Positions 7,216 through 46,177 are shown, counted from the stretch's first letter. The stretch: 56,983 nt of DNA from a virus (IMGVR_UViG_3300008261_000022:1-56983), one strand, 5' to 3'. Notes: generated by a model not told the origin, from the sequence alone. Made by a program: numbers and translations.

Positions 7216-7623
7216 TTACCACCCCGGACAGTTCCAACGCTTCATAGATGCGCGGGAACGACTTCCCCGCTCGCTTTTTTCTGCAATTGCACCCATACGG
7301 GCACAAAATGAATTTCTCCGACCGCCGCCTTGAGGTTGGGGCGCTTTGAGGTTGCTTCCGGTTTCCCGGTTGTACTTAGCCCTACCTTTTGCGGTCAATC
7401 CTGCGCCCTGAGATACAGATAACTTCTCACCCCGGCCAACAGAAAGGTTTACATCACCACCTTTTTTCATCTCACTAGGTAATTTTGAGTAAGACTTCTT
7501 GCCCACATTAGACTCAGTAAACTCCGCGGCTACAGATGGCTTTATCCCGACCTTTTTGGCAAACTTGGGGTTGTACTCAACGGCCTTCATGAGCCTGTAT
7601 TGAGCTTTTGATTTGGCTGGCAT
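7216..7623 (-). CDS. Basic protein with MKKGG motif followed by a DUF6321-like domain
   Basis: MPAKSKAQYRLM N-terminus; RRNSFCARM...KRWNC C-terminal signature. Confidence 0.6.
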   Translation of the reverse strand: MPAKSKAQYRLMKAVEYNPKFAKKVGIKPSVAAEFTESNVGKKSYSKLPSEMKKGGDVNLSVGRGEKLSVSQGAGLTAKGRAKYNRETGSNLKAPQPQGGGRRNSFCARMGAIAEKSERGSRSRASMKRWNCPGW

Positions 7624-8211
7624 TTATGATACCTGTTGAACGCTAACGATAATTGATGGAATCGCTGGATAAGCAGGAGTTACTGATGCCGGCAAATGCT
7701 CAAGAGTTAGTTGAGTTGATGATGGCAGCCAAAAGATTTGAACATAATCAGAAGAATTTAAATCTAAAAATATGTTCCATGCGGCGACCGCGTAACCAAA
7801 GATGCTTGCTGATTTTCTAGCCGGAACAGTAACTATCGTTGCAGAATTGGCAAGGTCACTACCATTGACCTTAAACCAAATAACTACTTCTTGCTGGGCG
7901 TTATCAACATTTTTAAATTGAGCACTAAACTGAAGGTCATAAACACCTGTGTTTGGCACAGTAATTTCAGAATTGTTTACAAGTGTGATGCCATCGGTTA
8001 CATCTTGAGTGTTATAGGTTATGACTGTTCCGGCAGATATGTTTCCTGTCTGATCGGTGCTATCACTCCATGCGCCGTAGGCTCGATTGTAGGCAATGAT
8101 GTCTGCAACAGTAGTTTTCCTATTGTCTCCGCTTTGAACGACCGGGACTAATTCAGCACCTGTAAGCGGCAGAGTTGCCGCGGTCATTGCTGAGATTTTG
8201 GTATCTGCCAT
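7624..8211 (-). CDS. Virion spike/fibre with C1q/TNF-like C-terminal domain
   Basis: N-terminus similar to that of 2805..5801; ITVPNTGVYDLQFSAQF..LDLNSSDYVQI C1q-like pattern. Confidence 0.6.
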   Translation of the reverse strand: MADTKISAMTAATLPLTGAELVPVVQSGDNRKTTVADIIAYNRAYGAWSDSTDQTGNISAGTVITYNTQDVTDGITLVNNSEITVPNTGVYDLQFSAQFKNVDNAQQEVVIWFKVNGSDLANSATIVTVPARKSASIFGYAVAAWNIFLDLNSSDYVQIFWLPSSTQLTLEHLPASVTPAYPAIPSIIVSVQQVS

Positions 8212-8783: not shown

Positions 8784-9698
8784 TTAGCACTTACCGCCGC
8801 GCCGCATTGCTTTTCCGTACTTGCTGTAAATCTCTACATCTTTAGATTTAGCAGCCTTCATTGCAGGGGCGTTTTCCTTATCAAACATCTTGGTTAAACG
8901 CTTTTCTGCGGGGGTCATTACTGCACCACCCTTTTTGAAGGTTCCGGAGAGCTGGTTGATGCTTACGGGTGTAGATGGTTTTTTATGACCCTGAGGCATT
9001 GATTCTGCCTTTCCGGAGTCATTTACCGCCCCACCCTTAGCATACTTTTTTGCGGCACCACCCTTCTTGTAGCCACCGCCATTGCCAAGTTTCACACCAC
9101 CTGTTTTGGCAGGCGAGTGATCCGGGTGGGTGGTATCCATCTTGGTGTTCTTGTACTTCTCAGCGCCCTTTTCAGAGGCCGCAACACCGATGATTCCACC
9201 TTTAGCGTAGCAATCTACTTTGCCACCCTTTTTGTAGCCACCCTGACCGTTGACAACGCCACCGGTCGCATAGCCACCTTGGCCTTTAACAACACCGCCG
9301 GTTTTAAGACCTTTGTGAGCCTTGGAGGCGGGCATAGACTTATGCTCCTTTAACTCCTTAGCGGTCTTCATCTCTTTAGCGTGTTCGGCTTTGGTTTCGC
9401 CACCTTTTTTCATCACTTGAGCGGCCGAACCTACGGGAGCAGCGGGAGCTGCACCTGCGGGCATGGCTCGCATCATGCGACGACGAGCGGCTAAAGAAGG
9501 GCGCATGGGAGACTTACCAGGCATCGCGCCGCCACTAGCGGGCATCGACGCTGGCATTGCTGCCGGAGCCGGTGTCGCCGTGGGGGCAAGAGCACCACCC
9601 ATTTGCATCTTCTTCTCTACTTTGCCACCTTTTTTGAGCTTTAACTCAACGGTAGGCTCCGTAGTCATCATTTTGACCATCGGTTTGAACTGACCCAT
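8784..9698 (-). CDS. Lys-rich low-complexity protein with 12 [MLFYA]xxGG motifs (putative internal head protein)
   Basis: LKKGG, MQMGG, MKKGG, LKTGG, YATGG, YKKGG, YAKGG, AKTGG, YKKGG, YAKGG, FKKGG, MRRGG. Confidence 0.75.
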   Translation of the reverse strand: MGQFKPMVKMMTTEPTVELKLKKGGKVEKKMQMGGALAPTATPAPAAMPASMPASGGAMPGKSPMRPSLAARRRMMRAMPAGAAPAAPVGSAAQVMKKGGETKAEHAKEMKTAKELKEHKSMPASKAHKGLKTGGVVKGQGGYATGGVVNGQGGYKKGGKVDCYAKGGIIGVAASEKGAEKYKNTKMDTTHPDHSPAKTGGVKLGNGGGYKKGGAAKKYAKGGAVNDSGKAESMPQGHKKPSTPVSINQLSGTFKKGGAVMTPAEKRLTKMFDKENAPAMKAAKSKDVEIYSKYGKAMRRGGKC

Positions 9699-10433: not shown

Positions 10434-11348
10434 TTAGACGCCGGGAGTACCGTACATTGCACGAGGATCGGTAAAGCCGACATCGTAACGCTCGGTGGCT
10501 TTGTACCGCATAGTGTCGGTCTCAAAGTCGCCTTCCATGGTCTTTTCAAGGCCACGGCGCATCATCAGCTTCATACCTTCCGGTGCGTCTGTTTGTACCC
10601 ACCATGCAGTCGGATTGGTCAAACGCGACAGAACGGCAGCACCCTCATCGAGCAGTCCGATGGACTTGACGGGGTTGATGTCGTTGTTAGCGTTGCCAGA
10701 ACGAAGCACGGACTTGAGCAGAACTTCAGCTTGGAAGACATTGCCTGGAGCCACGACCAATTGGCGTGGAACCAAACGAATCTTCTTGCCGTTATTGTCA
10801 ACCGCTTGGCGGATCTGAATAAGCATCTGCTCAAGGGAGGTCTGCGACAAGTTAGCAGGAGTCGTCAGGAGGTTGCTAAATGTTCCGTTTACGATGGGGT
10901 GTGAAGCGGAGTTCAATTGAACGCCATCACCACCAGGGTAAGAGGAGTTAAATGCACGATTCAGCACATTGGCGCTGAGCGTTTCCTTGGTCTCAATCAA
11001 AGACTGAGCAAGGTGACGCGCATACACTTGGCCGATACGGATATGGTCGCCATCCTCAACAAGAACTTTGGTCAAGGCGAAGGCTAGGCCATACACCGAG
11101 TACACATAACGCTTGAGGAAGAGTACGCCACCCTGCTGATAGGTAACCGGAGTTCCATCAGGCAGTTGGGGCGCGGCACCAAATCCATAAAGGACTGGCT
11201 CTTCGTGATAGTTACGGGGGATACCTTGTTGCTCACGGAAAACTCGTGACCACTCATCGGTACGCTGGTCATAGACTCCATCGAAGCATTCGTTAAGGAT
11301 TGGCTCAACTATGCTTCTAAAGTCGGTACTACGCATCGGGGCTGCCAT
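10434..11348 (-). CDS. Major capsid protein (HK97 fold, Mu gpT-like)
   Basis: 304 aa; GFGAAP..DG..VTY, PRQLVVAP, MEGDFETDTMRYKATERY..GFTDPRAMYG; strong AAGGAGG RBS; downstream hairpin. Confidence 0.9.
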   Translation of the reverse strand: MAAPMRSTDFRSIVEPILNECFDGVYDQRTDEWSRVFREQQGIPRNYHEEPVLYGFGAAPQLPDGTPVTYQQGGVLFLKRYVYSVYGLAFALTKVLVEDGDHIRIGQVYARHLAQSLIETKETLSANVLNRAFNSSYPGGDGVQLNSASHPIVNGTFSNLLTTPANLSQTSLEQMLIQIRQAVDNNGKKIRLVPRQLVVAPGNVFQAEVLLKSVLRSGNANNDINPVKSIGLLDEGAAVLSRLTNPTAWWVQTDAPEGMKLMMRRGLEKTMEGDFETDTMRYKATERYDVGFTDPRAMYGTPGV

Positions 11349-12541: not shown

Positions 12542-13501
12542 TTAGCTCCTATTCTGTCGTGCTTGTTCGGCGTATTTTTGAGCCATCCGGGCGCGTTTCT
12601 TTGGGTCATCCCAAAGTCCTGCATCTTTCATAGCTCTCACTTGTTCGGGACTTAAAGTAAAGGTGTTTCGGCTTGCGCCACCACCCGTTTCCCGCTCGCT
12701 TCCTGTCACAACGCTCCTAGGGCCTCTCTTTCTTGGAGTCTCGTCATTGGTCTCAGTATATGCACGACTTTCTTGCTCCTGCAACCGTGCATCTAATTCA
12801 TCCCAATAATCTTCTGAGGCGGGGTCCCAACCTTCCCGCACAAGTTGATTATCAATTCGCTTGGCAACCCGACTTCTTGGGTCTGTACCCTCAGGGTCAT
12901 ACCAAGCGTTCCTGTCCATCCAAGAGTTGGCCAATAATTTGATTTGGCCGGATTCTTGGTTGTTTTCGGCAGGAGGTTGCTGTTCAGCCTGAGCCTTGTA
13001 GACCCGCATCTTTTCTATGCGGTCTTTGGTCTCATACATAAGCTCTTGAGCCTTGATCATGGCTTGGCCATCGGAGTTTTCCGTGGCTTCGCGCATCTTG
13101 GCCTTGGCGTAGTTTAGGCGGGCTTCCTCATCCTGAATGGCTTTATCAAGTCGGGCAATGTCAGAGATGTGGGACTTCTTCTCAATTGCCGCCAACCTGG
13201 CCATCAGTTCTTGGTTCTGCCTAGCCAATAAAACCAACCGCTGGTCTTTCTCCTGGTTGGTCTTCTTGATGTAGTCCTTTTTGGCTCTACGGCGGGCACG
13301 GCGAGCCTCCCTTACCGCATCGGTGTCGTCTGGGTGATCCTCATCGGACTCGTCAGCCTCACCGCCTTGGGCTTTTTGCTCTTCGGCCTTTGGCTCTTCT
13401 TCGGCCTCTTCAGGCAGAAGTCCCTCAGGAACCTCAAAGGTCGCTGAGCCATCCTTTTCTTCAGATACCTTTATTTCTTGCTCTTTAATTTCTTCACTCA
13501 T
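12542..13501 (-). CDS. Capsid scaffolding protein
   Basis: Acidic N-terminus, long coiled coil, C-terminal LSPEQVRAMK...KYA; position between portal and capsid. Confidence 0.7.
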   Translation of the reverse strand: MSEEIKEQEIKVSEEKDGSATFEVPEGLLPEEAEEEPKAEEQKAQGGEADESDEDHPDDTDAVREARRARRRAKKDYIKKTNQEKDQRLVLLARQNQELMARLAAIEKKSHISDIARLDKAIQDEEARLNYAKAKMREATENSDGQAMIKAQELMYETKDRIEKMRVYKAQAEQQPPAENNQESGQIKLLANSWMDRNAWYDPEGTDPRSRVAKRIDNQLVREGWDPASEDYWDELDARLQEQESRAYTETNDETPRKRGPRSVVTGSERETGGGASRNTFTLSPEQVRAMKDAGLWDDPKKRARMAQKYAEQARQNRS

Positions 13502-13510: not shown

Positions 13511-13948
13511 CTATATGAAGGCTTTCATGGATAGTGGGTCGCCGGTCAATTTGGCTATCACTTCGTGGTCGTTGATCACCATAAATAGTGATGGCTCTTC
13601 GTCAGGCTTGCCCGGAATAGGCACTTCCCATCGATCACCGCCCCATTTAGGTACTCGTATGTAATCGCCCACTTCGCACCAAGACCCCTCAGGCCATGGT
13701 TCCATGGTGTCGCGCTTACGGAACGCCAATGGCCCAATCTCTAAAACTTGGGCGACCATGTTGTTCCACTTTTCGGTTTCTTTAGTTTCTTCAACCAAAA
13801 TAATCCCTGCGCTTGTTGCCTTCTTTTTTGTGCGCCGCAACTGAACCAAAATGCGAGCACCAAGAGGTTTAGCACCGGGGTCTACGCTCGGAAATGCCCA
13901 AGCCAACTCAGCGTTATCACACGCTACCGGTTCATTCATCTTCATCAT
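13511..13948 (-). CDS. groES: GroES-like co-chaperonin (cpn10)
   Basis: KPLGARILV...TSAGIILVEETKE...VLEIGP...VGDYI...INDHEVIA match the cpn10 pattern. Confidence 0.85.
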   Translation of the reverse strand: MMKMNEPVACDNAELAWAFPSVDPGAKPLGARILVQLRRTKKKATSAGIILVEETKETEKWNNMVAQVLEIGPLAFRKRDTMEPWPEGSWCEVGDYIRVPKWGGDRWEVPIPGKPDEEPSLFMVINDHEVIAKLTGDPLSMKAFI

Positions 13949-14117
13949 CTTCCTTTAATAGGTTGTTAAGTATGTCCAAGGACTCCTGTAGCCCTTGATA
14001 AGTCCCAACCAAACGCTGATAAGACTCCCAAGTCGTTGCCGTACCGCCGGCAAGGGACGCGGCTATTTCAGCCTGCCTAGCCTTAATCGCGCTGATCAGA
14101 TCTGAGGTTGTGTTCAT
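13932..14117 (-). CDS. Small helical hypothetical protein
   Basis: WESYQRLVGTYQGL; coupled in head operon. Confidence 0.7.
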   Translation of the reverse strand: MNTTSDLISAIKARQAEIAASLAGGTATTWESYQRLVGTYQGLQESLDILNNLLKEDDEDE

Positions 14118-14278
14118 TTTTTCTTAGTAGCTTGGCTTAGCCCCCCTTTCGACTGAGATTTGGTTTTCGACTCGGTTTGGGTCGATTTCATGGTTTGGCC
14201 ATCAAGCGGAACGCCCATAGCCATGCGCTTGTGCTGCTGAACCAAGTCGCCTTTTTGCTCTTTGTCGTAATCAGACAT
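14114..14278 (-). CDS. Small basic protein with C-terminal SKGGL motif (not in ORF track)
   Basis: Hand translation MSDYDKEQKGDLVQQHKRMAMGVPLDGQTMKSTQTESKTKSQSKGGLSQATKKK; AAGGAG RBS; overlaps portal stop and next start. Confidence 0.7.
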   Translation of the reverse strand: MSDYDKEQKGDLVQQHKRMAMGVPLDGQTMKSTQTESKTKSQSKGGLSQATKKK

Positions 14279-16823
14279 TTACATCTCCTTTTTTGATTAA
14301 CTCCACGGCGGACTTATCCTGGTCGAACTTCAACCGGGCCGCATCACGGGTTAACCGTGCCGTTTCGATGCGTTCCTTCATCTCCAAATCGCCCATGGCA
14401 ATAGACATCTTGTACTTCTGCTCTTCCATGGCCAATTCGTAGTCTTTTTGCAACCTTGCCATCTCGCGCTCTGCATCGGCGGCCATCTCCCGATCCTTGA
14501 GTTGCATTTCGGCTTGGTCGCGCTGGGCGCGGCGCTGGGTCTCTGCCATGGAGGTATCGAGCAGAACCTTGGCATCCGCGGTGAGGGGAGGTTGGGGCTT
14601 GTACTGCTGAGCCGCTTGGATCATCTGCTGAATCGTCGGCATGATGCCCTGCAAGGTCTCTTCGCTGTCCAAGCTGATGTGTTGGCCGGCCATGGAGTAG
14701 AGCCTGTCGATGTCCTTTGGATTGACCGCCAAAGCATAATTCTCGTGCAGTTCGCCGCCCAAAGACTTGCTGACATAGCCCTTTGCCCTGCCCAAATACC
14801 ATAGAACGATGTGCTGCTTGATGTGCTCCATGGCCTTAGGCATAAACTGAGGCGCAATCAATGGGTTACCCCCGAATACAGGGTCTTTAGCGAAGTCTAG
14901 GTGGCTCTGTATATGAGCCAAGTGGTCTTGCTCAGGGTAGGCAAATGCGGCCGATCCAAGGGTCATAGCCACATTCTCATTGGCAGAGTCCATCTTCTTG
15001 GGAGCCGGCACATCGATCATCAACTCATTGACCCCAGGTACCTTGATCTGCTTTAAGAACCGGGAAATCACGGCCTTGCGGTTAAAGAGGTCAGGGTTTT
15101 GCTGCATGATGGCCATAACCGCTTGGGTTTGAGCCATCCGTTGGGTTTCAGAGAAGATATGCGGGTCTGAGACCGGGACAATGTCGGTAGTCTTGGCAAA
15201 ATCATCGCGGGTGACATTCAGATCCTGAACGACATCACCTTTTTTCATGTCATCCAGGTACCAGCGGTTAATCCGCCCCAAAATCCTAAGAACTCTGCCC
15301 TGAGACTCATGCAAACGGGCATGGATTGAGGAAAATACCGCCGCACCCTGCTCAATTAGCGCCTGAGTCGTGCCAACGGGGGTGTTTTGCCCCACATCTG
15401 CAATCTTTTCCTCAGCGGTCGTAACCACGCCCTTAGCCGCGTTGGTTAACCAGGCCAAAAGCTGGTACAAAACGGGGCTTGGCGGGTTAAACGGCATCGG
15501 CATGGCCAGTTTGCGGACATCATCCACCCCCGGAGCCGCTTCGATCTCAGAGACTTGGGTGATTTCCACTTGTTGGCTCTGACCCGACACCTTTGCGCCC
15601 TTTAACTTTAAGAGTGTGGCGGCGTTGTTGATGTGGGCAGAGTCTAGGAGGGCGCGAAGCGAGCCGGTTAACGCGGCGGCTAAGCCCCCAATGAGGTGGG
15701 GAAGACCTACGGCATAGGCACCACGCCAAGGAATGAACTTAAACTCCACAATCCATTCCAATTTGGTCATGGAGTCATCGCCCTCTTCCCAATTTCGGTA
15801 TAGGCCAAGGACTTCGTTGTCCAATTCGTCAATCATCAAGATGTAGGGAGCCATCTCCCCCTTGGAATACTTGTCCTCAGGCACCTCTAGGAAGGTGTAG
15901 ATGTGATAAACCCTGCGGACACCGTCTTCGTTCTCATCTGGCTCTTTGCCTTCGACCTTTAGGTTGGCCTTTTCTGCGGCAGACTCATCAGGGTAGGCGG
16001 TTGCCCGTACCATGGAGATGTCTCGATAGAGGTTGGCGTTAATCCGGCGCTTGAATTCGTACTGCGTTATGTCCTGAATCTCCGTAACCCGTTGGGCGGT
16101 GTAGAAGTTCCCGGCAGCAAACGGCAGCAAAACATTGTCGATAGGCAGGAACTCAGCGCACGGGCGCTTTTTGCGCTCGTCGTACCACAGTTTCATGTAC
16201 TGCGAGCCACCCAAGGGAAGCTGGGTGAGCATCTGCTCCTCTTCATCACGGAACTCTTCGATTTGCTCCGTGAGCTGCCAGTTCATCCAATCCCGTTTGC
16301 GCTCTGAAACGGCCATCTTTTCATCGTTTACCTCACCCAAAATCTTGGTTTTAGTAGGACCATCGGGCGGAAACATTTCCTTGATGGCTCTAGCGGCAAA
16401 GTCAATACAAGCCTCAGCCATGATGGGGTGAACCACCTTGGAGGCACCGCTGAAGGTCGCTCCGCCGGGGGCATCGTTGCCCATTCCTGTCCGCCGGATG
16501 CCCTCTTCGTACTGCTCATCGCGCTTTTTGCGGCTTTCCTTGTCATTTCTGATAAGGGTTTGGTACTTTAGGGCGATGCTTTTGAGGTCAAAAAGGTCGA
16601 TGTCCTCGTCTTCGGCCAAGTTTTGGTAGAAGTCTTCGTTCTCCATTGGCCCTTTGGTGGGCATCTTGACCACGGCTGAGCCATCAGGGAGTTCCTCAAT
16701 GTCGGCCTCTGTCAGTTCGGGCAACTCAACCTCAGTCTCCGCACCCTGCTCTTCCATGGTTGGGTCAGGGATGCCTTCAACGAAGCGATTAAATTCGGGA
16801 TCTATTGGGAATTCTTCAGCCAT
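14271..16823 (-). CDS. Portal protein
   Basis: 850 aa; VVHPIMAEAC..F.ARA..E.FP..GP, DWMNWQLTE, GAYAVGLPHLIGG, PVGTTQALIEQG; C-terminal coiled-coil barrel. Confidence 0.85.
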   Translation of the reverse strand: MAEEFPIDPEFNRFVEGIPDPTMEEQGAETEVELPELTEADIEELPDGSAVVKMPTKGPMENEDFYQNLAEDEDIDLFDLKSIALKYQTLIRNDKESRKKRDEQYEEGIRRTGMGNDAPGGATFSGASKVVHPIMAEACIDFAARAIKEMFPPDGPTKTKILGEVNDEKMAVSERKRDWMNWQLTEQIEEFRDEEEQMLTQLPLGGSQYMKLWYDERKKRPCAEFLPIDNVLLPFAAGNFYTAQRVTEIQDITQYEFKRRINANLYRDISMVRATAYPDESAAEKANLKVEGKEPDENEDGVRRVYHIYTFLEVPEDKYSKGEMAPYILMIDELDNEVLGLYRNWEEGDDSMTKLEWIVEFKFIPWRGAYAVGLPHLIGGLAAALTGSLRALLDSAHINNAATLLKLKGAKVSGQSQQVEITQVSEIEAAPGVDDVRKLAMPMPFNPPSPVLYQLLAWLTNAAKGVVTTAEEKIADVGQNTPVGTTQALIEQGAAVFSSIHARLHESQGRVLRILGRINRWYLDDMKKGDVVQDLNVTRDDFAKTTDIVPVSDPHIFSETQRMAQTQAVMAIMQQNPDLFNRKAVISRFLKQIKVPGVNELMIDVPAPKKMDSANENVAMTLGSAAFAYPEQDHLAHIQSHLDFAKDPVFGGNPLIAPQFMPKAMEHIKQHIVLWYLGRAKGYVSKSLGGELHENYALAVNPKDIDRLYSMAGQHISLDSEETLQGIMPTIQQMIQAAQQYKPQPPLTADAKVLLDTSMAETQRRAQRDQAEMQLKDREMAADAEREMARLQKDYELAMEEQKYKMSIAMGDLEMKERIETARLTRDAARLKFDQDKSAVELIKKGDVNV

Positions 16824-34442: not shown

Positions 34443-34455
34443 GTAATTTAATTGG

Positions 34456-34517: not shown

Positions 34518-34552
34518 TGGGATGTAGTACAACTTCGGAAAGGTAGGTTTAT

Positions 34553-34714: not shown

Positions 34715-35339
34715 AGATTCCGGTGATTTTGTTGCCGTGCCGGCGGGAATGCACCTTGCGAGGTGCTATCGGATTATCGACCAAGGGACTCAGAAGTCAG
34801 AGTACATGGGCAAGGAGAAGTACCTACCCAAGGTCATGATTCAGTTTGAGATCCATAGCGAGGATGACAAGGGTACCCCCCTCCTGACTCAGGATGGCCG
34901 CCCGTTGTCGATTGCCAAGAGTTTTACCCTCACCTTGGCAGAGAAATCTACGCTCCGTAAGGATCTTCAGATGTGGCGTGGGCGTGACTTTACCGCTGAG
35001 GAGTTGCGGGGCTTTGAACTCAAAAATGTCTTGGGTGCGTGGGCGATGCTGAATGTCACCCATACGGAGTCCAACGGTAAGACCTATACCAACATTGCGG
35101 GGGTCAATCCGGTTCCCGCCAACATGAAAAAGGCGGGTCTTCCCAACGGGGTTAACGAACTCAAAATCTTTGACATTGAGAATCCTGACATGGAACTTTT
35201 TGATTCCTTTTCAGAAAACCTCAAAAAGAAGATTGAGTCCTCTCCGGAGTGGCAAGAGTCTCGCGGGTCTGCTTCCCAAAGGTCTTCGGCACCAAAGTCA
35301 GAGGGAATCGAAGGTCTTGATGATGACATTCCTTTTTGA
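34698..35339 (+). CDS. Single-stranded DNA-binding-like protein
   Basis: PAGMHLARCYRIIDQGTQ OB-fold-like N-terminus; acidic DDDIPF tail. Confidence 0.75.
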   Translation: MGLVAKDSGDFVAVPAGMHLARCYRIIDQGTQKSEYMGKEKYLPKVMIQFEIHSEDDKGTPLLTQDGRPLSIAKSFTLTLAEKSTLRKDLQMWRGRDFTAEELRGFELKNVLGAWAMLNVTHTESNGKTYTNIAGVNPVPANMKKAGLPNGVNELKIFDIENPDMELFDSFSENLKKKIESSPEWQESRGSASQRSSAPKSEGIEGLDDDIPF

Positions 35340-35347
35340 GGTCAATC

Positions 35348-35548
35348 ATGAGCCAATCGCAAGACATCCTTGAGCACATGAAGAGTTCACCAATCACCCC
35401 AATTGAGGCACTAAATAAGTTTGGGTGCCTTCGATTGGCGGCAAGAATTAAAGATCTAAAAGATTTGGGACATCAAATTGTGACTCTCACCGCAGAAAAG
35501 AATGGCAAGAAATTTGCCCGATATGTTTTGATAAAGGAAAGAAAATGA
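35348..35548 (+). CDS. Winged helix-turn-helix protein
   Basis: ILEHMK..PITPIEAL..FGCLRLAARIKDLKDLGHQI. Confidence 0.8.
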   Translation: MSQSQDILEHMKSSPITPIEALNKFGCLRLAARIKDLKDLGHQIVTLTAEKNGKKFARYVLIKERK

Positions 35549-35844
35549 ATCAATTTAATTATGGAAAGACGAGGAGACCTATGTTGATTGCGTTAGCCGT
35601 TTGTATGGCCGGATGGATTCAGGGTTGTTCGACAACGGACAAGAAAGCTCTTGAAAACACTAGCGGTAACCAAATGTTGGTTCTTGACCAAACGGTTCAG
35701 CCGATGGATCGGGTAGAGGTTATCAACGCAATCAAGGACTGTCAGGTTACCGGCCTTCGGGCGGTCATGATCTATAGCAAGAAAAAAATCAACAATCAAT
35801 CCACGCCAATCGTGGTCGATGTTACTTGTGCTCCCCTATATTAA
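35545..35844 (+). CDS. Putative lipoprotein
   Basis: Basic n-region, hydrophobic stretch, IQGC lipobox-like. Confidence 0.6.
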   Translation: MNQFNYGKTRRPMLIALAVCMAGWIQGCSTTDKKALENTSGNQMLVLDQTVQPMDRVEVINAIKDCQVTGLRAVMIYSKKKINNQSTPIVVDVTCAPLY

Positions 35845-37542: not shown

Positions 37543-38883
37543 TTACGGAGCAATCGTTTCGCTAGTCTGACCTAGCGGAGCCTTGCTCTGATTTTCTCTC
37601 ATGTACTGAATTAGTGGCGCGGTGATGGCCAACGGAATCCCTACGGGAGCGGTTGGGGGGAAGGCTGACATAACCGCACCGGTTGCCCCAAGACCGGACA
37701 GACCCATCTTCATGTAGTCTGGCTTTTCTTTTCCGGCCTCGCTTGCCATTGAACCCAACTCACTTCCAGCTTGGGCAAACGCCAAGGGTGGCGCACCGTA
37801 CTTCATAACCGTGCCGCCTATGGTTCTCATCCTTGAGCCTGGTTCAATCATATCCCTGAATAATTTTGTAACCTCATCAAGGCCACTACGGGGAGGTGGG
37901 GGAACGGGCTTGGTCGCGGGAGCACTTCTTGGGTATAGCACCCCAGATGGGGTTGCAGTCATCCCAGGTGATTGAGCAAATACTTGGGATGCACTCTGAG
38001 GAACCACTCCTGACCTTTGTAAGGCTCCGATGTTTTGAGCGGCTTCTTTGGCTCGCGCAGCCTGTTGGGCGGTCTCAACATTAAATCCCGCCATGCGAGC
38101 TCTTCCGGTCGCCCCAGAATCAACATCGGTTGTGCCCTGAAGGATTCGATTGGCTTGGGTAGCCTCTGAAGCTAGGTTTGGTGCCATCGACCCACCAAGA
38201 GGAGGACTTGCGGATAAACGGCCTTCCTCAGCCGCTTGGCCTAAGAGCCTCGCCGCTCTACCGGCTACCGCTGGAGCAGCACGAAGAGCAGTTAAGGCAG
38301 TACCCGCACCGGCTCCGGCAAGCTCACCCCGACCGCGGGCAGACTTCTCCCGAACCGCATCAATTTGCTTTTGAAATTCAACAGAATCTTGGCTTTGAGT
38401 AGGCTCAAATTCTGAGCTCACAGGTTTTTCAGGCTGTGCGGGCGCAGCGGTTGCTGTCGGGAATGCCCCGTAGCCCTTCAAATCTTTTAAATAATTGACT
38501 GTTATGTCAGGGAGGGTTGTTCCTTTGGATGTAAAAAACGGGTGGTTGATCCCTGCGTTATATCCAGCGGCGGCCAATCGAGCATCGCCCTCGCTCATAT
38601 CCAAGGACTTCTTCAGATACTTTATCCCTGCCTCAATGTTCTTTTCGGGGTCACGGATGTCTTCCGCTGAGAACCCAACCTCTTTGGCGGTATCGGGCTT
38701 GATCTGCATGATCCCAATCTCGCCAGCTCCGCCTGCCTGAACCTTAGGGTTGAGACCGCTTTCCTTGAAGGCCACGGACACGGCAAGTTCTGGAGACACC
38801 CCCATCTGCTTAGCCTTAGCGGCAATCCGTTGGGCGTAGGATTTTTGAGATTCGTTGAGGTTTTCGTAAAAGCTCAGATTCAT
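37543..38883 (-). CDS. Virion ejection protein with N-terminal lytic transglycosylase (SLT) domain
   Basis: KESGLNP, GIMQI, AGIKYL, YNAG motifs; last gene of late operon. Confidence 0.88.
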   Translation of the reverse strand: MNLSFYENLNESQKSYAQRIAAKAKQMGVSPELAVSVAFKESGLNPKVQAGGAGEIGIMQIKPDTAKEVGFSAEDIRDPEKNIEAGIKYLKKSLDMSEGDARLAAAGYNAGINHPFFTSKGTTLPDITVNYLKDLKGYGAFPTATAAPAQPEKPVSSEFEPTQSQDSVEFQKQIDAVREKSARGRGELAGAGAGTALTALRAAPAVAGRAARLLGQAAEEGRLSASPPLGGSMAPNLASEATQANRILQGTTDVDSGATGRARMAGFNVETAQQAARAKEAAQNIGALQRSGVVPQSASQVFAQSPGMTATPSGVLYPRSAPATKPVPPPPRSGLDEVTKLFRDMIEPGSRMRTIGGTVMKYGAPPLAFAQAGSELGSMASEAGKEKPDYMKMGLSGLGATGAVMSAFPPTAPVGIPLAITAPLIQYMRENQSKAPLGQTSETIAP

Positions 38884-40445: not shown

Positions 40446-41543
40446 TTAGCCCTTACTTACATGGAATAATCCACCGCGTTTACCAGGCGGCTCTTCCTGA
40501 GAAGTTGGGACGCTGGTCGTTGATGGCCCGTAATATGGCCCAATATCCTCATCTGGGTCACCCGACTTGCCGTAAGAATCAGAACCCGTGCCAAAAAGCT
40601 TTTTATAAAAATCTGTTGATCCAATTGCGTCGGCACCTTTTGAAAATAAATCCGAAACGCCCTTGAGGAGGCTATCGCTTGCTATTGGCTTGCCTTGGGC
40701 ATCGTAAGTCACGCCACCTGGCCGGATAGCCCCAAGGGTTGATAGAACTCCAAGGATGTTTGCCAAGTCTGAGGTTTTATACAGGCCAGCCTTTGGCCCC
40801 ACAAAAGTCTCAGTTTGGGTGGTTGGCATTTGATAGCCACGCATTAGACCAGCGGCGGTTGTAGCGGTTTTCAGGGGGTAATCGAGCAGGCTCTGCTCAT
40901 AGGCTTGCTTCTCAGCCCCGGCCTTAGTCAACGCTCCAGCTCCGGTCAGACCTAATTCCTGTTCTTTTCCAGCAATTTGAGCCTGTGTTTGAGCGGCTTG
41001 GTTTTGTAGTTGAAGCTCTTCCATGGCCGCCTTCATGGCGTTTTGGTAGCCAGATGAGAGCGCCCCGTACTGTTGGCCCATCAAATTGCGTTGCATATCG
41101 CCCAAGGTTTGGCCTGTCGCAGCGGCATATCGCTGGCTGCCAAGGTTTCCAGACCCCACAAAGGCTCCCTTTAGGGAAGGTAGAACCGACCTTTGTATGT
41201 TCTGTTGCTGGAGCCTTGCCATCTCATCGACCACCTGCCTTTGGTAGGGGTCCATGAGGGCTTGTATCCGGTTGGGGTCAAACCCCGCGGCAGCGGTTGC
41301 TGCGGTTTGTCCGGCGGCGGTCAGCCCTGGCTGATAAGAGGTTGCCGCTCCTGGAACCATCCCGTAGCCCTGAGTCTGAAGGGCATCCATCGGGGCGACA
41401 CCTTGGCCAACAGGTCTTGCCATGGCGGTCTGACCCGCTTGGGAGAGGTCTTGGAGGTATTGGGTGTAGTAATCCGGGGCGACCTCCGCACGGGTGGTCG
41501 TTTGGGTAACATTTGGTAACGGATCGCCTTGGGTGATTGCCAT
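40446..41543 (-). CDS. Putative ejection (DNA pilot-like) protein
   Basis: Q/A/G-rich, MDPYQRQVVD, GNLGSQRY; C-terminal KRGGLF. Confidence 0.65.
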   Translation of the reverse strand: MAITQGDPLPNVTQTTTRAEVAPDYYTQYLQDLSQAGQTAMARPVGQGVAPMDALQTQGYGMVPGAATSYQPGLTAAGQTAATAAAGFDPNRIQALMDPYQRQVVDEMARLQQQNIQRSVLPSLKGAFVGSGNLGSQRYAAATGQTLGDMQRNLMGQQYGALSSGYQNAMKAAMEELQLQNQAAQTQAQIAGKEQELGLTGAGALTKAGAEKQAYEQSLLDYPLKTATTAAGLMRGYQMPTTQTETFVGPKAGLYKTSDLANILGVLSTLGAIRPGGVTYDAQGKPIASDSLLKGVSDLFSKGADAIGSTDFYKKLFGTGSDSYGKSGDPDEDIGPYYGPSTTSVPTSQEEPPGKRGGLFHVSKG

Positions 41544-41545: not shown

Positions 41546-44500
41546 CTATCTCCTAGCCTTCTGAGCAGACTTTTTGCCCTTCAAATAATCTAGCGGGTTT
41601 GCCTTAGCCTCCGGGGGTAAGTCCTTTGGCTTTGCCGACCGGTGGTATGCCCTGATCGAATGCATCATGTCGTACAACTTATCGGAGCCAGCTTTGGTTG
41701 AGCCGTTACCTAAAGCGGCCACCACATCGGCGGGGATCACAAACTCCCCATCAGCCAACATCGCTGGAATGTCATCAGATTGGCCATCCCCAGGGCCGGT
41801 CACCGCATCACCCTGCCGAAAGTCTACCCTCGCCTTACCGGAGTGCGCCACCATAGGCAAGCCCCCGCCGGCATATCTGCCGTAACGGGTTTGGCCGCCA
41901 CCGGCCATCAGAGGTGTGGCCAACCCACCTCTTTTTGCGATCATCGGCTCCAAGCCGTAGAACGATGTGCCCGCCGTTCCGAATGGGCTAAACAACTGAT
42001 CTATGTCAGTAGATTGCCCATAGGTAAAGTAATTCGGCATGAAAGGATCTCCTTGTTGGGTATTTTCCCGTATTTCGGGGGTTGTCTGCGACTGAGTCTG
42101 CGTAAACGGTTGGTCACCATAGTCTGAGGACTGAACCTCGGCCATGAACTCTTGTAGTGGCCCCTTGAACTCCTCTTGCTTAGTGGTGCTTGTGATAAAG
42201 GGCTTTTTAAACTTTGCGGAGTCATCGGCAGGGGTGACTTGAGGGGCTTGGCCGATCAAAGGAAGCATGGCGGCTTGTTGGGCGGCCTGTCTCTCACCCT
42301 GAGTCTTTTGTAGGGCGATGCTTTGTTGTAAGGCGTTATATCGAGCCTTATCTATGTTTTTAGCAACATCTTCTAAAGTTGCTTCTTCCGGTCTTTGGCC
42401 AACAAACTCAGCCACATCTTCGGGCGTTGGTTGGTCTAGACCTAAAGTTCTGTACTTTGCAACAACCTCTTCTGTGGTCGTTAGAAGTGGATCGACATAG
42501 GATTCAAGTTGTGACTTGACCTGTTGCTGTTGGATGTCTTTGCCTTGGCGAACATATTCAGCAATTTCTTGAGAGTTCGGGACATAACCAAACTCCTTAT
42601 AAAACGCCTCAACTTCCGCTTGGGTTACTTGCCGTGGATCAACATACTCCCCGATTGAGGTCTTGACCTCTGCCTCAGGTTTGGACAGAACAAATTGCGC
42701 CAATTCGTTTGGCTGGGGCGTATACCCATAGGTATTAAAGAACTCTTGCGCCTCTGATTGGAGGGTAGCCAATGGATCAATCTGCGCCCGATAGGCGGCG
42801 GTTGCTTCTGCCTCATTAGCTTGGCGAGCCAACGCCAACGCCTGCTGATCGGTAAGGGTGTAACCCTCTGCCGCCGCCGCGGCCTTAATCTCTGCCACAT
42901 CAAATACATTTGGATCGGCAATTGATATGGCCTGTTCTTTAGCCTGGGTTTCAATGATTTGGCCAACAATCTTTTGAACATCAGCATCTGTCGGGGCGGT
43001 ATATCCTTGCTCAGCCAAGAACGCACGGGCTTCTGACTCTAGTGTTGCAAGCGGGTCTGAGTAAGTTTGGAAGGACTCTAAAGTAGGTTGTTCGTCTTTT
43101 GCACCCGTAAATCTTGCGTAGTCCTCAGGCTTGAGGGTATACCCCTCTGTGGCAGCCTGTTGCTCAAGTTCTTGTCTTGTAGTGTAGGCGGCATCATATT
43201 TCTGTAGATTTGAGGCAACATCTGCGGCACCTCCGATAGGGCCACCCGCTACCCCCTCTAAAGTACCGGATGCAACAACACCGCGCCATGTCGGGACTGC
43301 AAAACCTTCACGCTGAAGAGCGATGTTTTCCGCTAACTTTTCTTGGCCGCCCTGAGCTGCCTCAGGAATGCCTTCTTTCAATCCGCCTACAACAAACTGC
43401 CCCGCAACATTCTTGGCGGCAACACCCTCAGCAATATTTGATGCTATTTCTTTTGTAAGGATTTTTTCCGCTGGTCCCATAGCGGCCGCGGTTCCCAATA
43501 TTGCGCCGGCAATGATGGAATCAAGATTTTTGCCGTTATAAGCCTGAGCCTGCTGAGCCTTAATTTCTGCCGTACCGGGATCAACGCCCGAGGCAATTAA
43601 CGCTTTCTTGGTTTCATCGTAAATAGTGCCCTTGATAATTCCCGCTCCAGACACCGCTCCTGTCCCGTACTGAGCGATGCGAGCTACGACCATAGGAGCG
43701 CCTAAAACCGATGTAGCCATGGCTGCGGCCACATTTGGAACGATAGTTCCCGCCGCCTCTACGATTACACCTGGATAGGCAACTAACGCTTCAACACCGG
43801 CAATTACTTGATCCAAAACACCTTTGTCTTTTGCATCATTAAGAATTTTGGCTTGTAAGGCTTTGTCATTTAACGCCTCAGCACTATAGAGCGATTGGAT
43901 GTAACCACGGGCGGTTCCCAAAGCCTTTGATACTGAGTTGTCTGCACCGAAGGCATCGGTAATGCCTTTGATACCATTGACAATTCCTGACATTAAATCA
44001 AGGGTGGTGCTATTTGGCCTTGCGGATGCAGTAAACCTTGCAAGAGCCTCTTTTTCTGCCGGAGTCAGTTTATTTTGGAAGTTATCGTAGGCTTCCTTGA
44101 TGTAGTTATAGACCGTGTCTCCCAAGTCAATTTTCTTCTTGTCATCAGAGGCAAAGTCTTGGTACATCTCAAACCAACCCATAGGGTCTTGGTCGCGCAT
44201 CTCATCAAGCGTGTTTCCAACCCCACGGGTGTCACCTACACCCTCAATCGTAATCCGGAGTTTTTTGTCTCCGGTCACAGGGTCCCAAAAGTATCCATCG
44301 GTTTTTTGATCTGCGGAGGCGTTGGATAGCCATGCATATGCCCCGTTAGAAGTTGGCATTAGAACGGCTTGGTTGCCAAAAATCTCTTCTGAGGTGGCTA
44401 ACTTATATCCTTCTGGCGGCGTGTAAGTCGTTGAGGATGGCCGGTTGTCGGCGTTGTAGGTATCTTTGACCAAATCCTCATTGACTGTTGAGGATGAGGA

Positions 44501-46177
44501 GGTCTGCAAAATATCATCAACATCGAAGTCAGCAATGGTGGCGTTCTTTAACGCATTGAAATCGCTACCAAACTGGTTTTCAATGGTTTCGTAAAAGCGT
44601 TCCCGATCTTCTTTTGTGAGGTTTGTAAGTTTTAAGTCTCGAGCCTCTAATGCCTCAGACAATAAGCGGGCTTGTTGCTCCACTACGGAAGATTCTGCCG
44701 CCTTGTAATTTGTTGGAAGTTTTTCGTACTGACCAGTTGAAAGCCAATGATTGTAGGGATCAACACTTGCATCCAATCCATTAATCTTGCGGTATTCATC
44801 AGGATTGAAGTTTGTATCCATAACCCCAACAAACGACTTTTTAACGCCGTTTTCTAAGACTTCAACTTCTTTGCCTAGTTCTAATGCTAATTCTTTTATG
44901 CTTGCCTGTTCTTTTTGAAAGTCAGCAACTAATTGATCATGAGGTATTTTTAAAGCGTTAAGTTCAGATTCGTACTTATCCAAGTCAGGTTTAAATACAT
45001 TTTCATAGTCGCTATTAAGTGAAGTGACATAAGAGTTGTATTCTTCAATTGACCGATTAGCTGTTGCTATCCAACTTTCAACAACATCTTTTTGAAGATT
45101 TCCAGAGTTATATTCTTTGACATAAAAATTTGCTGTTTCGCTATTGCTCTCCATTACCTTTTTTAATTCATTTTGTTTTTCTAGTCTTACGCTTAATTGA
45201 TCCCTGACTATGTTGTACTGATTAATTACTTCATTTTGTTTGGATTCATTTTCTGAAACCTGCGTTGCAACCGAAGCCATCCGTTCAGATGTTTGTTGGG
45301 TCTTGGTTGTTAATTCTTTAACTTTAGCCGTTGCCGCATCGCCAAGAGCTTTGGAACCTGCGTTGAATAGTTCTTTTTGAATGGCCGCATTAACATTTCC
45401 GCCTGTAAATGCCGCCACGGAAGCTGCGGTCACAACATCGGCAAGAATAGCTTGTTGACTCTTTGAAAGAGTTCCATTTGGATCTAGTTTCTTAATTGTG
45501 TCCGTTGCGAGTTGGGAACTTACGATTGCTGAACGAATAACCGCCGCCCCAACATCACCCCCGGCAAGTTGAGTTTTAACTGCGGTTTCAATAATCTTTT
45601 GGGTGGTTGGAGATAAGTCCCGGAATCCATCAACCTGTCCCAATACGGCAGGAACGGCGGCATTCACCCCACCTGTGATCATTGCCTTAACAGGGTCTTG
45701 TCCGGTAACAATTGCGGATGCGGCAGAACCGGCCGCTGAACCAGCGATATTTCCCGCAATCTGTGAGGCGGTCTGCATACCGGCTTCTTGGGCGGCAAGC
45801 ATAGCGGCCTGTTGTGATCCTGCATTTACGCCATAATTCATCGCCGTGGCAGCATTTGTTGTATTGGCTGCAACCGCTTGGCCAACCCGTGCCCCGGCTT
45901 CTTGGGCAACAACTGCAATTACGACCGCCTTAGCCACATCTTCAATATCACCACCTTTAGCGGCGACATCCGCTCCTTCAATATAAGGAAGTAGCCAATA
46001 CTGTTGGGTTGCTATGGCCGCAATCTGGGCGATTGTTTTTATCGGGTTATCGAGAGCCGCATCAATCATGTCCCCGGCAAAGTCAACCACCGGATCGACA
46101 ATTTCATCTCCGACCCATTCAACGGCATCTTCTACTGCATCACCGAGGTCTTCAACTTTATCTTCAACCCAACCCAT
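41546..46177 (-). CDS. Large internal virion/ejection protein with tandem repeats and C-terminal xGG..GPGDG.SD.IPA.L.DGEFV domain
   Basis: 1543 aa; coiled coil, hydrophobic G/A segments, six ~47-aa repeats. Confidence 0.7.
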   Translation of the reverse strand: MGWVEDKVEDLGDAVEDAVEWVGDEIVDPVVDFAGDMIDAALDNPIKTIAQIAAIATQQYWLLPYIEGADVAAKGGDIEDVAKAVVIAVVAQEAGARVGQAVAANTTNAATAMNYGVNAGSQQAAMLAAQEAGMQTASQIAGNIAGSAAGSAASAIVTGQDPVKAMITGGVNAAVPAVLGQVDGFRDLSPTTQKIIETAVKTQLAGGDVGAAVIRSAIVSSQLATDTIKKLDPNGTLSKSQQAILADVVTAASVAAFTGGNVNAAIQKELFNAGSKALGDAATAKVKELTTKTQQTSERMASVATQVSENESKQNEVINQYNIVRDQLSVRLEKQNELKKVMESNSETANFYVKEYNSGNLQKDVVESWIATANRSIEEYNSYVTSLNSDYENVFKPDLDKYESELNALKIPHDQLVADFQKEQASIKELALELGKEVEVLENGVKKSFVGVMDTNFNPDEYRKINGLDASVDPYNHWLSTGQYEKLPTNYKAAESSVVEQQARLLSEALEARDLKLTNLTKEDRERFYETIENQFGSDFNALKNATIADFDVDDILQTSSSSTVNEDLVKDTYNADNRPSSTTYTPPEGYKLATSEEIFGNQAVLMPTSNGAYAWLSNASADQKTDGYFWDPVTGDKKLRITIEGVGDTRGVGNTLDEMRDQDPMGWFEMYQDFASDDKKKIDLGDTVYNYIKEAYDNFQNKLTPAEKEALARFTASARPNSTTLDLMSGIVNGIKGITDAFGADNSVSKALGTARGYIQSLYSAEALNDKALQAKILNDAKDKGVLDQVIAGVEALVAYPGVIVEAAGTIVPNVAAAMATSVLGAPMVVARIAQYGTGAVSGAGIIKGTIYDETKKALIASGVDPGTAEIKAQQAQAYNGKNLDSIIAGAILGTAAAMGPAEKILTKEIASNIAEGVAAKNVAGQFVVGGLKEGIPEAAQGGQEKLAENIALQREGFAVPTWRGVVASGTLEGVAGGPIGGAADVASNLQKYDAAYTTRQELEQQAATEGYTLKPEDYARFTGAKDEQPTLESFQTYSDPLATLESEARAFLAEQGYTAPTDADVQKIVGQIIETQAKEQAISIADPNVFDVAEIKAAAAAEGYTLTDQQALALARQANEAEATAAYRAQIDPLATLQSEAQEFFNTYGYTPQPNELAQFVLSKPEAEVKTSIGEYVDPRQVTQAEVEAFYKEFGYVPNSQEIAEYVRQGKDIQQQQVKSQLESYVDPLLTTTEEVVAKYRTLGLDQPTPEDVAEFVGQRPEEATLEDVAKNIDKARYNALQQSIALQKTQGERQAAQQAAMLPLIGQAPQVTPADDSAKFKKPFITSTTKQEEFKGPLQEFMAEVQSSDYGDQPFTQTQSQTTPEIRENTQQGDPFMPNYFTYGQSTDIDQLFSPFGTAGTSFYGLEPMIAKRGGLATPLMAGGGQTRYGRYAGGGLPMVAHSGKARVDFRQGDAVTGPGDGQSDDIPAMLADGEFVIPADVVAALGNGSTKAGSDKLYDMMHSIRAYHRSAKPKDLPPEAKANPLDYLKGKKSAQKARR

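Follow-up and report, generated by a model that had tools for sequence, protein, structure and literature searches.

A short Gly-Gly linear motif in putative head-cargo and ejection proteins of a podovirus-type phage

Described targeting and processing signals

Phage T4 has a capsid targeting signal that occurs once, at the N-terminus, and is cut off by the prohead protease. As presented in PMC3012670, it is a short peptide common to unrelated, diverse, injected anti-host proteins. Family 1 encapsulins use targeting peptides such as GSLxIGSLK, GGDLGIRK and LTVGSLRR, which are short, contain glycine, stand at the C-terminus of the cargo, end in K or R and have their binding site on the inner P-domain of the HK97-fold shell (PMC10960027). 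The adenovirus protease cleaves at (M/I/L)XGG-X sites and has a cofactor peptide, pVIc (PMC4246237). Polyvalent proteins (Iyer et al. 2017, PMC5512222) are giant multi-module proteins encoded beside packaging genes; their modules are shuffled, and embedded zincin peptidases are predicted to process them. The main text of that paper, supplementary files aside, makes no mention of a linker motif or of glycine. One polyvalent protein, phi24B gp47, was found in the podophage virion by mass spectrometry (preprint 10.64898/2026.04.10.717836). Tape measure proteins, namely T5 pb2 and lambda gpH, are cut near their C-terminal domain (PMC10038345, PMC11445458), and involvement of the host is cited in the first of these accounts.

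We analysed a viral DNA stretch of 56,983 nt (IMGVR_UViG_3300008261_000022, here called the window), in which several proteins carry a motif of the form hydrophobic-[K/A/Q]-x-G-G-x-[V/I/A]. The literature searched, which left subscription journals and supplementary files to one side, holds no description of this motif. It resembles the encapsulin peptides in that short Gly-containing C-terminal peptides, basic at the end and holding two to three hydrophobic residues, are found on unrelated putative cargo in a system with an HK97-fold shell. Unlike them, it is also internal and multi-copy and is accompanied by a dedicated protein (the hub, below), and the tails GGLSALRK, GGLTQLKAR and GGLAHAMN have nothing in common with the encapsulin peptides beyond Gly, Leu residues at intervals and a basic terminus. 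The likeness to T4 lies in a short peptide common to unrelated proteins, and the Alt-like ADP-ribosyltransferase cargo of T4 recalls the ART-PolyVal domains of related large proteins. The motif differs in its position, internal or C-terminal, and in its several copies, and a scan of 54 of the 71 ORFs revealed no prohead protease. An N-terminal signal of the T4 type, a parallel drawn in the initial annotation, does not fit: of 27 large proteins, 5 have GG in the first 30 residues, where 7.1 would be expected. The adenovirus sites are alike in placing a hydrophobic residue before GG, in basic core or internal proteins and sometimes as two adjacent sites, and in both a site is followed by a C-terminal peptide (pVIc in adenovirus) in which a Cys is conserved. 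That analogy, also suggested at the outset, is off by one register, the hydrophobic residue standing at P5 in the phage (with two residues before GG) and at P4 in adenovirus.

A short linear motif and its distribution

The strict pattern [MLFY][KAQR]xGG was counted in the 71 ORFs of the window and matches 29 times; the initial annotation had claimed about 29 copies, near-consensus variants included, in six ORFs. All six are confirmed, on the minus strand. The 12 copies assigned to a 304-aa protein (8784..9698) resolve into 11 strict matches and a near-consensus AKTGG, the approximately 11 copies in a 2310-aa protein (16836..23768) into 10 strict matches and RKKGG at residue 2300, and the single copy in a 135-aa protein (7216..7623) is a strict MKKGG at residues 52-56. 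Three copies had been given to a 1543-aa protein (41546..46177): MAGGG at 1424 and YAGGG at 1435 are strict, and AKRGG at 1414-1418 comes in addition to the strict count. SKGGL in a 54-aa protein (14114..14278; GG at residues 45-46) and KRGGL in a 365-aa protein (40446..41543; residues 355-359) do exist, but both fall outside the strict pattern. The statement that the capsid protein is free of the motif proved wrong, since it has a strict YQQGG at residues 70-74, which is invariant and lies within the fold. Further single strict matches occur in 5801..6142, 28920..30590, 31748..31951 and 52779..53396.

Chance levels were obtained from 2000 within-protein shuffles. For the 304-aa protein the shuffles gave a mean of 0.34 and a maximum of 3 against 11 observed, and for the 2310-aa protein a mean of 0.88 and a maximum of 6 against 10 observed; none of the 2000 reached the observed number in either case. 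Over the whole proteome, 29 matches compare with a shuffle mean of 5.8 and a maximum of 19; the motif recurs far above chance. The single match of the 135-aa protein and the two of the 1543-aa protein are non-significant alone (160 and 143 of the 2000 shuffles, respectively, reach these numbers), and single matches gain weight only because they are conserved in orthologues. The motif is neither genome-wide, as had been claimed, nor general to late genes: late genes outside the six ORFs hold 3 matches in 10276 aa (0.29 per 1000), against 2 in 3664 aa (0.55 per 1000) in early genes.

These residues form a genuine short linear motif. An unbiased logo built from all GG sites of the hub family, to which the 304-aa protein belongs, has Y/M/L/F at 66% three positions before the first Gly and K at 45%, while controls are flat. 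The hydrophobic residue said to follow GG is present too: two residues after GG, the hub family has V in 28% and A in 20%, and large pre-portal proteins related to the 2310-aa protein have V in 22%, with control families again flat. Across 80 IMG/VR loci, motif density is 28.2 per 1000 aa in the hub family (70 of 70 members), 6.8 in the DUF6321 family and 3.35 in the large pre-portal proteins; the remaining families have 0-0.8, save the capsid protein, whose 3.3 reflects its single invariant in-fold match. Caulobacter phage RLK, with a capsid protein 77% identical, is without hub, large protein and DUF6321 protein and is almost motif-free; judged by this phage, the motif system is accessory. 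In the phi24B polyvalent protein the motif occurs once against 1.2 expected, and by this comparison it is not general to polyvalent proteins.

The carrier proteins

The hub protein (304 aa, 8784..9698, minus strand, 11 strict copies) is rich in lysine and glycine (16% each), has MGQFKPMVKM...KLKKGG as its conserved N-terminus and closes with GG-K-Cys. Its family numbers at least 5180 homologues, none of which has a name or a Pfam assignment. In 120 homologues there are 9-13 copies per protein, and 115 of the 120 end in Cys, the end having the form GG-x(1-3)-Cys; Cys21 of the capsid protein tracks this terminal Cys only partly. Copy number changes by gain or loss of whole units, length varies, and the motif makes up most of the conserved positions. 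The protein is predicted to be disordered (AF2 mean pLDDT 46.2, pTM 0.14; ESM model pLDDT 0.41). Sister-clade proteins of hub-like composition carry DUF6496 or DUF6321.

The 2310-aa protein (16836..23768, minus strand, 10 strict copies and the RKKGG tail) is a putative polyvalent-type protein, giant and multi-module, whose gene has that of the large terminase (23826..25247) on one side and that of the portal (14271..16823) on the other. It has no Pfam family at E<=0.01 and contains two homologous modules of ~775 aa (28% identical, E 8e-55). It has homology blocks in common with large proteins from IMG/VR, one of them at 39.6% identity over 227 aa, and the domains ART-PolyVal, LPD23 and ParB_N were found in three of the seven related large proteins scanned. 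An N-terminal MAGGG (residues 15-19; 23712..23726, minus strand) is followed by a basic helix-like stretch. Linker 1 (residues 238-340; 22749..23057, minus strand) has four strict copies, including the double unit MKAGGEVRMQSGG, and a homology block spanning 46-261 ends within it. Linker 2 (residues 1116-1156; 20301..20423, minus strand), with YKKGG, FARGG and MQAGG, separates the two repeated modules. YKKGG and MAKGG stand in linker 3 (residues 1930-1953; 17910..17981, minus strand), the boundary between module 2 and the C-terminal domain, where homology blocks end at 1936-1949 and the next begins at 1969. The protein closes with the tail RKKGGLAHAMN (16839..16871, minus strand).

This placement bears out the earlier view that the motif sits in linkers and termini. 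Its median distance to a homology-block boundary is 7 aa against 30 aa for random positions, 59% of motifs lie within 10 aa of a block end against 25% at random (n=120), and the same C-terminal domain is found at differing places in different large proteins. A conserved peptide at the C-terminus of the putative cargo, as in encapsulin systems, is also seen: GG falls in the last 30 residues of 30 of 38 related large proteins (10.2 expected), and in the hub family (65 of 69) and the 54-aa family (28 of 35) it falls in the last 15. A GSLxIGSLK-like consensus is absent from these tails, which in the large proteins are 6-25 aa long, with L adjoining GG in 13 of 30. In other head-gene families 0-6 members have GG in the last 15 residues; portals have it in 13 of 52 and tail fibres in 29 of 38, where it belongs to a distinct motif, IFGGTF.

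The 135-aa protein (7216..7623, minus strand; PHROG and Pfam matches) consists of a DUF3008-like N-terminal module, MKKGG (7456..7470) and DUF6321 (PF19846), which occupies residues 73-130 with 54.5 bits against a cutoff of 28.5; its protein atlas clusters are 99-100% DUF6321. No paper on DUF6321, DUF3008 or DUF6496 was found in the literature search. Positions of the motif are kept in relatives, GG being present in 30 of 30 aligned orthologues and the strict motif in 80% of the 65 members of the family. Of 88 proteins that contain the DUF6321 core, 17 have the motif no more than 32 aa upstream of it, and all 17 are fused or N-extended; where DUF6321 stands alone, the start Met of the protein falls on the motif's hydrophobic position in the alignment. 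HTVC023P gp43 has FKRGGDV before DUF6321, although its capsid protein is only ~40% identical, and the motif also precedes LYANIHAKR and STTPAW modules. The 54-aa protein (14114..14278, minus strand), encoded downstream of the portal gene, ends in KGGLSQATKKK (motif 14138..14152).

Two carriers are ejection-type proteins. The 365-aa DNA-ejection-like protein (40446..41543, minus strand; phrog_4287) has the C-terminal tail GKRGGLFHVSKG (motif 40467..40481), and its KRGGL is present at 4 of 14 related loci, in close relatives only. In the 1543-aa ejection protein the AKRGG/MAGGG/YAGGG cluster (residues 1415-1439; 41861..41935, minus strand) lies at the N-terminal edge of a tape-measure-like C-terminal domain (41549..41860, minus strand), and ejection proteins have one or two motifs 102-123 aa from the C-terminus at 14 of 14 related loci. 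A tblastn search with the domain finds similar sequences in 27 phage records (E 1e-8 to 6e-4, query coverage 23-66%), many of which bear a tape measure annotation, and there is a weak PDB match to the JBD30 tape measure protein 8rk3_A (E 0.099). The tape-measure-like protein of RLK has the motif before a GPGxGxSD domain, as does, weakly, JBD30 8rk3. The cluster stands where tape measure proteins, T5 pb2 and lambda gpH being the comparators, have their cut or "hook" boundary; the differences are that the genome is podovirus-type, with no tail tube gene recognised, that T5 is cut after Arg, and that the JBD30 match is weak. Homology and gene position suggest that the motif-bearing proteins are probably head-internal cargo or ejection proteins. 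The initial claim of head cargo is upheld to this extent, by the ART-PolyVal, LPD23 and ParB_N relatives of the 2310-aa protein, the tape-measure-like end of the 1543-aa protein and the ejection PHROG of the 365-aa protein.

Candidate functions and significance

The reading we favour, with a probability of roughly one in three, is that the motif is a putative multivalent docking or retention peptide, a "sticker", for head cargo. Its partner in the procapsid interior would be the HK97-fold capsid protein, on the inner face, or else the scaffold, at its acidic N-terminal part. Cargo would thereby be recruited and retained before DNA packaging, in a manner recalling the T4 capsid-targeting sequence and the C-terminal peptides of encapsulin cargo. 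The hub may act as a multivalent bridge, the basic linkers may later lie among the packaged DNA, and the two glycines may serve as a hinge, allowing the string of modules to thread out through the portal. Several points weigh against docking. A single copy would suffice as the address of a protein, and the model does not call for one at each junction. The tails are akin to encapsulin peptides in flavour and not in consensus, and the capsid's Cys21 follows the terminal Cys of the hub only partly. Capsid, scaffold and portal are conserved in the motif-poor phage RLK, and therefore no receptor co-varies with the motif. Finally, the motif abuts modules that also exist stand-alone, as expected of a cleavage site or an integral N-cap. 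It is tempting to go further and speculate that the motif is a portable code, in which a hub with 9-13 stickers and cargo with 1-10 co-assemble with the procapsid interior, protease-free, so that arbitrary modules could be packed and injected; valency would be scaled to cargo size, and the system would be the phage counterpart of encapsulin targeting peptides. We regard this extension as unlikely.

Alternatively, the motif could be a maturation cleavage site, cut after GG by an embedded, unrecognised phage protease or by a host protease, which would release polyvalent or ejection modules, trim the C-terminal tails and chop the hub into short basic peptides. The motif lies exactly at module boundaries, and directly before modules that also exist alone, as in the 17 fused or N-extended DUF6321 proteins; the short tails after GG are pro-peptide-like, the hub's GG-x(1-3)-Cys end (115 of 120) recalls the conserved Cys of the adenovirus pVI C-terminal peptide after its cut site, and the processing described for polyvalent and tape measure proteins offers precedents. 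Yet a Pfam and/or PHROG scan of 54 of the 71 ORFs, the other 17 all being <=76 aa, revealed no endoprotease, CE-clan or other cysteine type included; the only peptidase families matched were Peptidase_S74 (two fibre proteins, chaperones) and Peptidase_M15 (endolysin). The peptidase-like HExxH occurs in only 4 of 37 related large proteins and is absent from the 2310-aa protein, which is without the zincin predicted for polyvalent proteins (PMC5512222), and a gene for a PF10118 "metal-dependent hydrolase" was found at only one of 15 related loci. Adenovirus and ubiquitin-like sites have the hydrophobic residue at P4, not P5 as here, the T5 site follows Arg and not GG, and complete cutting of the hub would leave pieces 5-40 residues long for which no use suggests itself. 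Cleavage is somewhat unlikely in our view, while being a reading to reckon with.

A further serious rival, if a doubtful one, is that the motif is only a passive, flexible Gly-Gly hinge whose short cap is part of the adjacent module, as the N-cap in DUF6321 or as the edge of the "hook" in the tape-measure domain; it would spread with shuffled modules and have no partner of its own. This would account for the same neighbouring modules over large distances, as in HTVC023P gp43, for the motif before the GPGxGxSD domain in RLK and JBD30, and for the alignment of the DUF6321 start Met with the hydrophobic position, but it leaves unexplained a dedicated, nearly all-motif protein with thousands of homologues, the excess of C-terminal tails that no module follows, and the presence of one motif beside many unrelated modules.

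RGG boxes and aromatic-Gly stickers are nucleic-acid-binding, phase-separating low-complexity motifs. The phage motif might be a lysine version of these, binding packaged DNA and neutralising its charge while hub and cargo co-condense; the K- and G-rich, predicted disordered hub with its Y/F/M stickers, its variable copy number and the DUF6496 or DUF6321 sister proteins are consistent with this. Such a role overlaps with docking and does not exclude it, and since the procapsid has to take up its proteins ahead of the DNA, binding to DNA cannot by itself bring cargo in; we consider it quite improbable.

Selection on the motif acts at the protein level: its codons vary between copies, a search for a tandem DNA repeat at the motif found none, and GGA makes up 0-5% of codons at the first Gly against 14-21% of all Gly codons. 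That the peptide is a by-product of a nucleotide signal, be it a DNA repeat or a Shine-Dalgarno-like GGNGG within the gene that serves in-frame starts, is extremely unlikely and already largely refuted, for although K-G-G codons may resemble a ribosome-binding site and the second hydrophobic residue of double units is Met in 11 of 12, GGA is avoided, GAG after GG is at 64% against 60% overall, Met lies within +2..+6 in 20% against 15% at random, Y and F cannot serve as start codons, and no internal ribosome-site signature was found at the motif.

Should the motif be a loading or processing code, it would provide a sequence rule for spotting head-internal, injected proteins in uncultured phage genomes, with a reach of at least 5180 unnamed homologues in the hub family alone. 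It would also explain how polyvalent modules are swapped at fixed joints, and would offer a short tag to try for packing foreign proteins into phage heads. Even as a mere hinge, the motif defines module boundaries in Pfam-blank proteins.

A motif confined to particular proteins

The strict pattern [MLFY][KAQR]xGG has 29 matches across the 71 ORFs of the window, 11 of them in the 304-aa Lys- and Gly-rich hub protein (8784..9698, minus strand) and 10 in the 2310-aa protein (16836..23768, minus strand). When each protein was shuffled internally, the mean counts were 0.34 and 0.88, respectively, and the observed counts were reached in 0 of 2000 shuffles. These shuffles, together with the flat control logos of the portal, fibre, adaptor and scaffold, rule out an artefact of composition and bear out the proposal that the motif is more frequent than composition predicts. 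All near-consensus copies listed in the initial annotation were found. By contrast, its description of the motif as genome-wide has to be given up: only five strict matches lie outside the six proteins it named, and late genes outside these six carry 0.29 matches per 1000 aa, compared to 0.55 in early genes. A late-gene-wide feature is thus ruled out, and the motif is a property of individual proteins rather than of the genome or the late genes.

The window, a virus record of 56,983 bases, is rated 100% complete in CheckV, and its minus strand carries almost all of the genes. Annotation via PHROGs and Pfam identified a small terminase (25416..25991), a large terminase (23826..25247), a portal (14271..16823), a GroES-like protein (13511..13948), an HK97-type capsid protein (10434..11348), an SLT transglycosylase (37543..38883), a DNA-ejection-like protein (40446..41543), an SU10-type adaptor (51082..51723) and an M15 endolysin (51881..52330); a probable scaffold (12542..13501) was recognized from its acidic N-terminus. 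The capsid protein shares 89.5% identity with its MW202545.1 counterpart, 77% with the counterparts in Caulobacter phages RW, RLK, KcrB and GB2A, and about 40% with the ones in Pelagibacter phage HTVC023P and Roseobacter phage CRP-901. At least 595 relatives are present in IMG/VR. Given the complete-genome rating, two genes for fibre-like proteins, each with a C-terminal Peptidase_S74 intramolecular chaperone domain, stand at opposite ends of the record (210..1373 and 55393..56784). The early region encodes a 110-aa protein (30837..31169) matching the Rap1a immunity protein family (PF18602, E 1.3e-19). Rap1a confers immunity against a type VI peptidoglycan effector, and such a gene is unusual for a phage early region. 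The GroES-like co-chaperonin gene of the head module is conserved in all relatives examined (RLK, MW202545, HTVC023P and CRP-901), and it has a mobile-loop stretch, SAGIILV, loosely similar to what follows GG in the motif. A possible likeness between K-x-G-G-I/V-V/I and the mobile loop of GroES was considered; GroES also occurs in motif-free relatives.

Over 80 IMG/VR loci, the hub family carries 28.2 strict motifs per 1000 aa (carriers 70/70), the DUF3008-DUF6321 family 6.8 (carriers 80%) and the large pre-portal proteins, relatives of the 2310-aa protein, 3.35 (carriers 93%), with 0-0.8 in all other families except the capsid protein. The latter, in which the initial annotation had seen no copy, reaches 3.29 (carriers 100%) with one strict match that is invariant and lies inside the capsid fold. 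Among the smaller carriers, the 135-aa protein (7216..7623) keeps the junction GG before DUF6321 in 30/30 aligned orthologues, and this GG recurs in HTVC023P gp43. In the 1543-aa ejection protein (41546..46177), the AKRGG/MAGGG/YAGGG cluster borders a tape-measure-like C-terminal domain; 1-2 motifs lie 102-123 aa from the C-terminus in 14/14 related loci, even where the neighbouring gene is only 30% identical. The weaker cases are the 54-aa protein (14114..14278), whose C-terminal GG-L tail is kept in 28/35 orthologues, and the 365-aa DNA-ejection-like protein, with its KRGGL tail kept in only 4/14 loci. The window's portal C-terminus (14271..14315) reads ...ELIKKGDVNV, the motif minus one Gly; of 45 distinct C-terminal sequences listed for related portals, 3 have MAKGGL near the C-terminus, and 13/52 portals have GG within their last 15 aa. 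In MW202545.1, the Manatee Spring relative, the ejection-protein orthologues (18832..20070 and 20074..21993) have long CCSCCC-type Cys runs and many further Cys near their C-termini, immediately preceding GG tails. Such C-terminal runs are absent from the window's ejection proteins.

A logo built from every GG dipeptide, and so independent of the pattern, gave for the hub family Y/M/L/F (66%) three positions before GG, K (45%) or A (23%) two positions before it, and V (28%) or A (20%) two positions after it. The large proteins gave a weaker form of the same logo. A double unit of period 8, hydrophobic-x-x-GG-x-V-x-M-x-x-GG, is recurrent, and its second hydrophobic residue is Met in 11/12 cases.

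The hub protein and the capsid

At least 5180 homologues of the hub protein exist, all unnamed and none with a Pfam match. Common to them are an invariant N-terminus, 9-13 copies of the motif and several further conserved blocks without it; whole units gained or lost account for the differences in length. The AF2 model, from a 33-sequence alignment, had a mean pLDDT of 46.2 and a pTM of 0.14, with 209/304 residues below 50; the ESM Atlas model scored 0.41. A tblastn search with the hub protein against phage records came back empty, with low-complexity filtering as the probable cause.

The hub protein is accessory, since Caulobacter phage RLK and 20/25 RLK-like IMG/VR loci do without it. RLK is also without the large protein and the DUF6321 protein, and the motif is almost absent from it; the 20 loci lack the hub and the DUF6321 protein alike, and the other 5/25 encode a hub-like protein of another family, some bearing DUF6496 or DUF6321, in counts that ignore kinship among phylogenetically non-independent loci. 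In a sister clade, one hub-like protein (locus L141, 7106..7768) has a perfect run, MKHGGMKHGGMKHGGMKHGGM, and a C-terminal DUF6496 domain. The slot directly downstream of the RLK capsid gene holds a 516-aa Cys-rich, motif-free ORF of unknown function (34156..35706), followed by a decoration-like gene, with no counterpart of the window-clade hub gene.

In 115/120 hub homologues the C-terminus reads GG-x(1-3)-Cys, and the protein usually has no other Cys. The hub C-terminus lies at 8784..8792 and capsid Cys21 at 11286..11288. Cys21 is invariant in 25/25 close relatives and absent in RLK, HTVC023P and CRP-901. Position 21 of the capsid protein is not a Cys in any of 80 RLK-like IMG/VR loci; a hub-like protein is still encoded in 9 of these 80, and in 4 of the 9 it has a Cys at or near its C-terminus. 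A putative disulfide between capsid Cys21 and the hub terminal Cys is therefore only partly supported, as Cys-ended hub-like proteins occur in loci lacking the capsid Cys.

Joints of shuffled modules

Judged by their domains, the large pre-portal proteins appear to be of the polyvalent type: ART-PolyVal, LPD23 and ParB_N turned up in 3/7 of those scanned, and the window's 2310-aa protein, itself without a Pfam match, has long blocks in common with these relatives. It consists in part of two homologous modules of about 775 aa (28% identity, E 8e-55), with the motif flanking both. The median distance from motif to the end of a homology block is 7 aa, compared to 30 aa when positions are random (n=120), and where the window's C-terminal domain (residues 1969-2308) recurs in other large proteins, its place along the chain is very different. 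The motif thus marks the joints of shuffled modules. It is also frequent at the end of the chain, with GG within the last 30 residues in 30/38 large proteins (10.2 expected), followed by tails of 6-25 residues, often GG-L-x-x-L/M-x-K/R. A general feature of polyvalent proteins is ruled out by the 2807-aa protein of phi24B, which has 1 motif (1.16 expected) and which is virion-proven according to part of the source (10.64898/2026.04.10.717836).

A scan of 1.84 billion representative proteins returned 862 relatives of the 135-aa protein. Long DUF6321 proteins (n=31) contain the motif 39 times (8.4 expected), here too immediately ahead of DUF6321, and also ahead of two further small modules. Where DUF6321 stands alone, the start Met of the protein falls on the hydrophobic motif position in the alignment. 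Among PDB sequences, 0 matched the DUF6321 profile.

Docking, cleavage and other readings

We tentatively favour a docking or retention motif, to which we give a probability of about one in three. The C-terminal excess of the motif and its multivalency within the fold-less hub protein would both speak for docking, as would the confinement of carriers to proteins that may be head-internal, their location in the virion being deduced from homology and gene order.

Cleavage at the motif is a rather doubtful alternative. In its favour, the placement of the motif is exactly junctional, stand-alone homologues of the modules exist, and the tails after GG are short; processing has precedents in tape-measure proteins with host involvement (in an excerpt of PMC10038345) and, as a prediction, in polyvalent proteins (in a section of PMC5512222). 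However, no endoprotease was found among the 54/71 ORFs scanned (the remaining ORFs are all ≤76 aa), where the only peptidase families matched were the S74 fibre chaperones and the M15 endolysin, and HExxH occurs in only 4/37 large proteins. The ejection genes include a PF10118 "predicted metal-dependent hydrolase" (46652..47389, E 1e-43). It is unlikely to be the missing protease, being found in only 1/15 related loci and not conserved along with the motif. The analogy to the adenovirus site drawn in the initial annotation fails on register: per the GG logo, the phage hydrophobic residue is separated from GG by one residue more than in the site as partly described in PMC4246237.

A passive hinge or module cap is unlikely. 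A DNA-binding or condensing low-complexity motif, which would overlap with docking, is quite improbable. A nucleotide-level artefact is scarcely credible: the motif codons vary, recent DNA duplication is ruled out by a hub gene without tandem DNA repeat at score 30, and internal ribosome-binding sites or start codons by codon and downstream-Met statistics (GGA avoided at the first Gly, 0-5% vs 14-21% overall; no enrichment of GAG after GG; in-frame Met downstream of GG barely higher than random, 20% vs 15%).

For docking or retention, the closest working analogue would be the encapsulin targeting peptide, described in part of PMC10960027 as a short C-terminal peptide containing Gly and Leu, with a basic end, that binds the inner P-domain of the HK97-fold shell.
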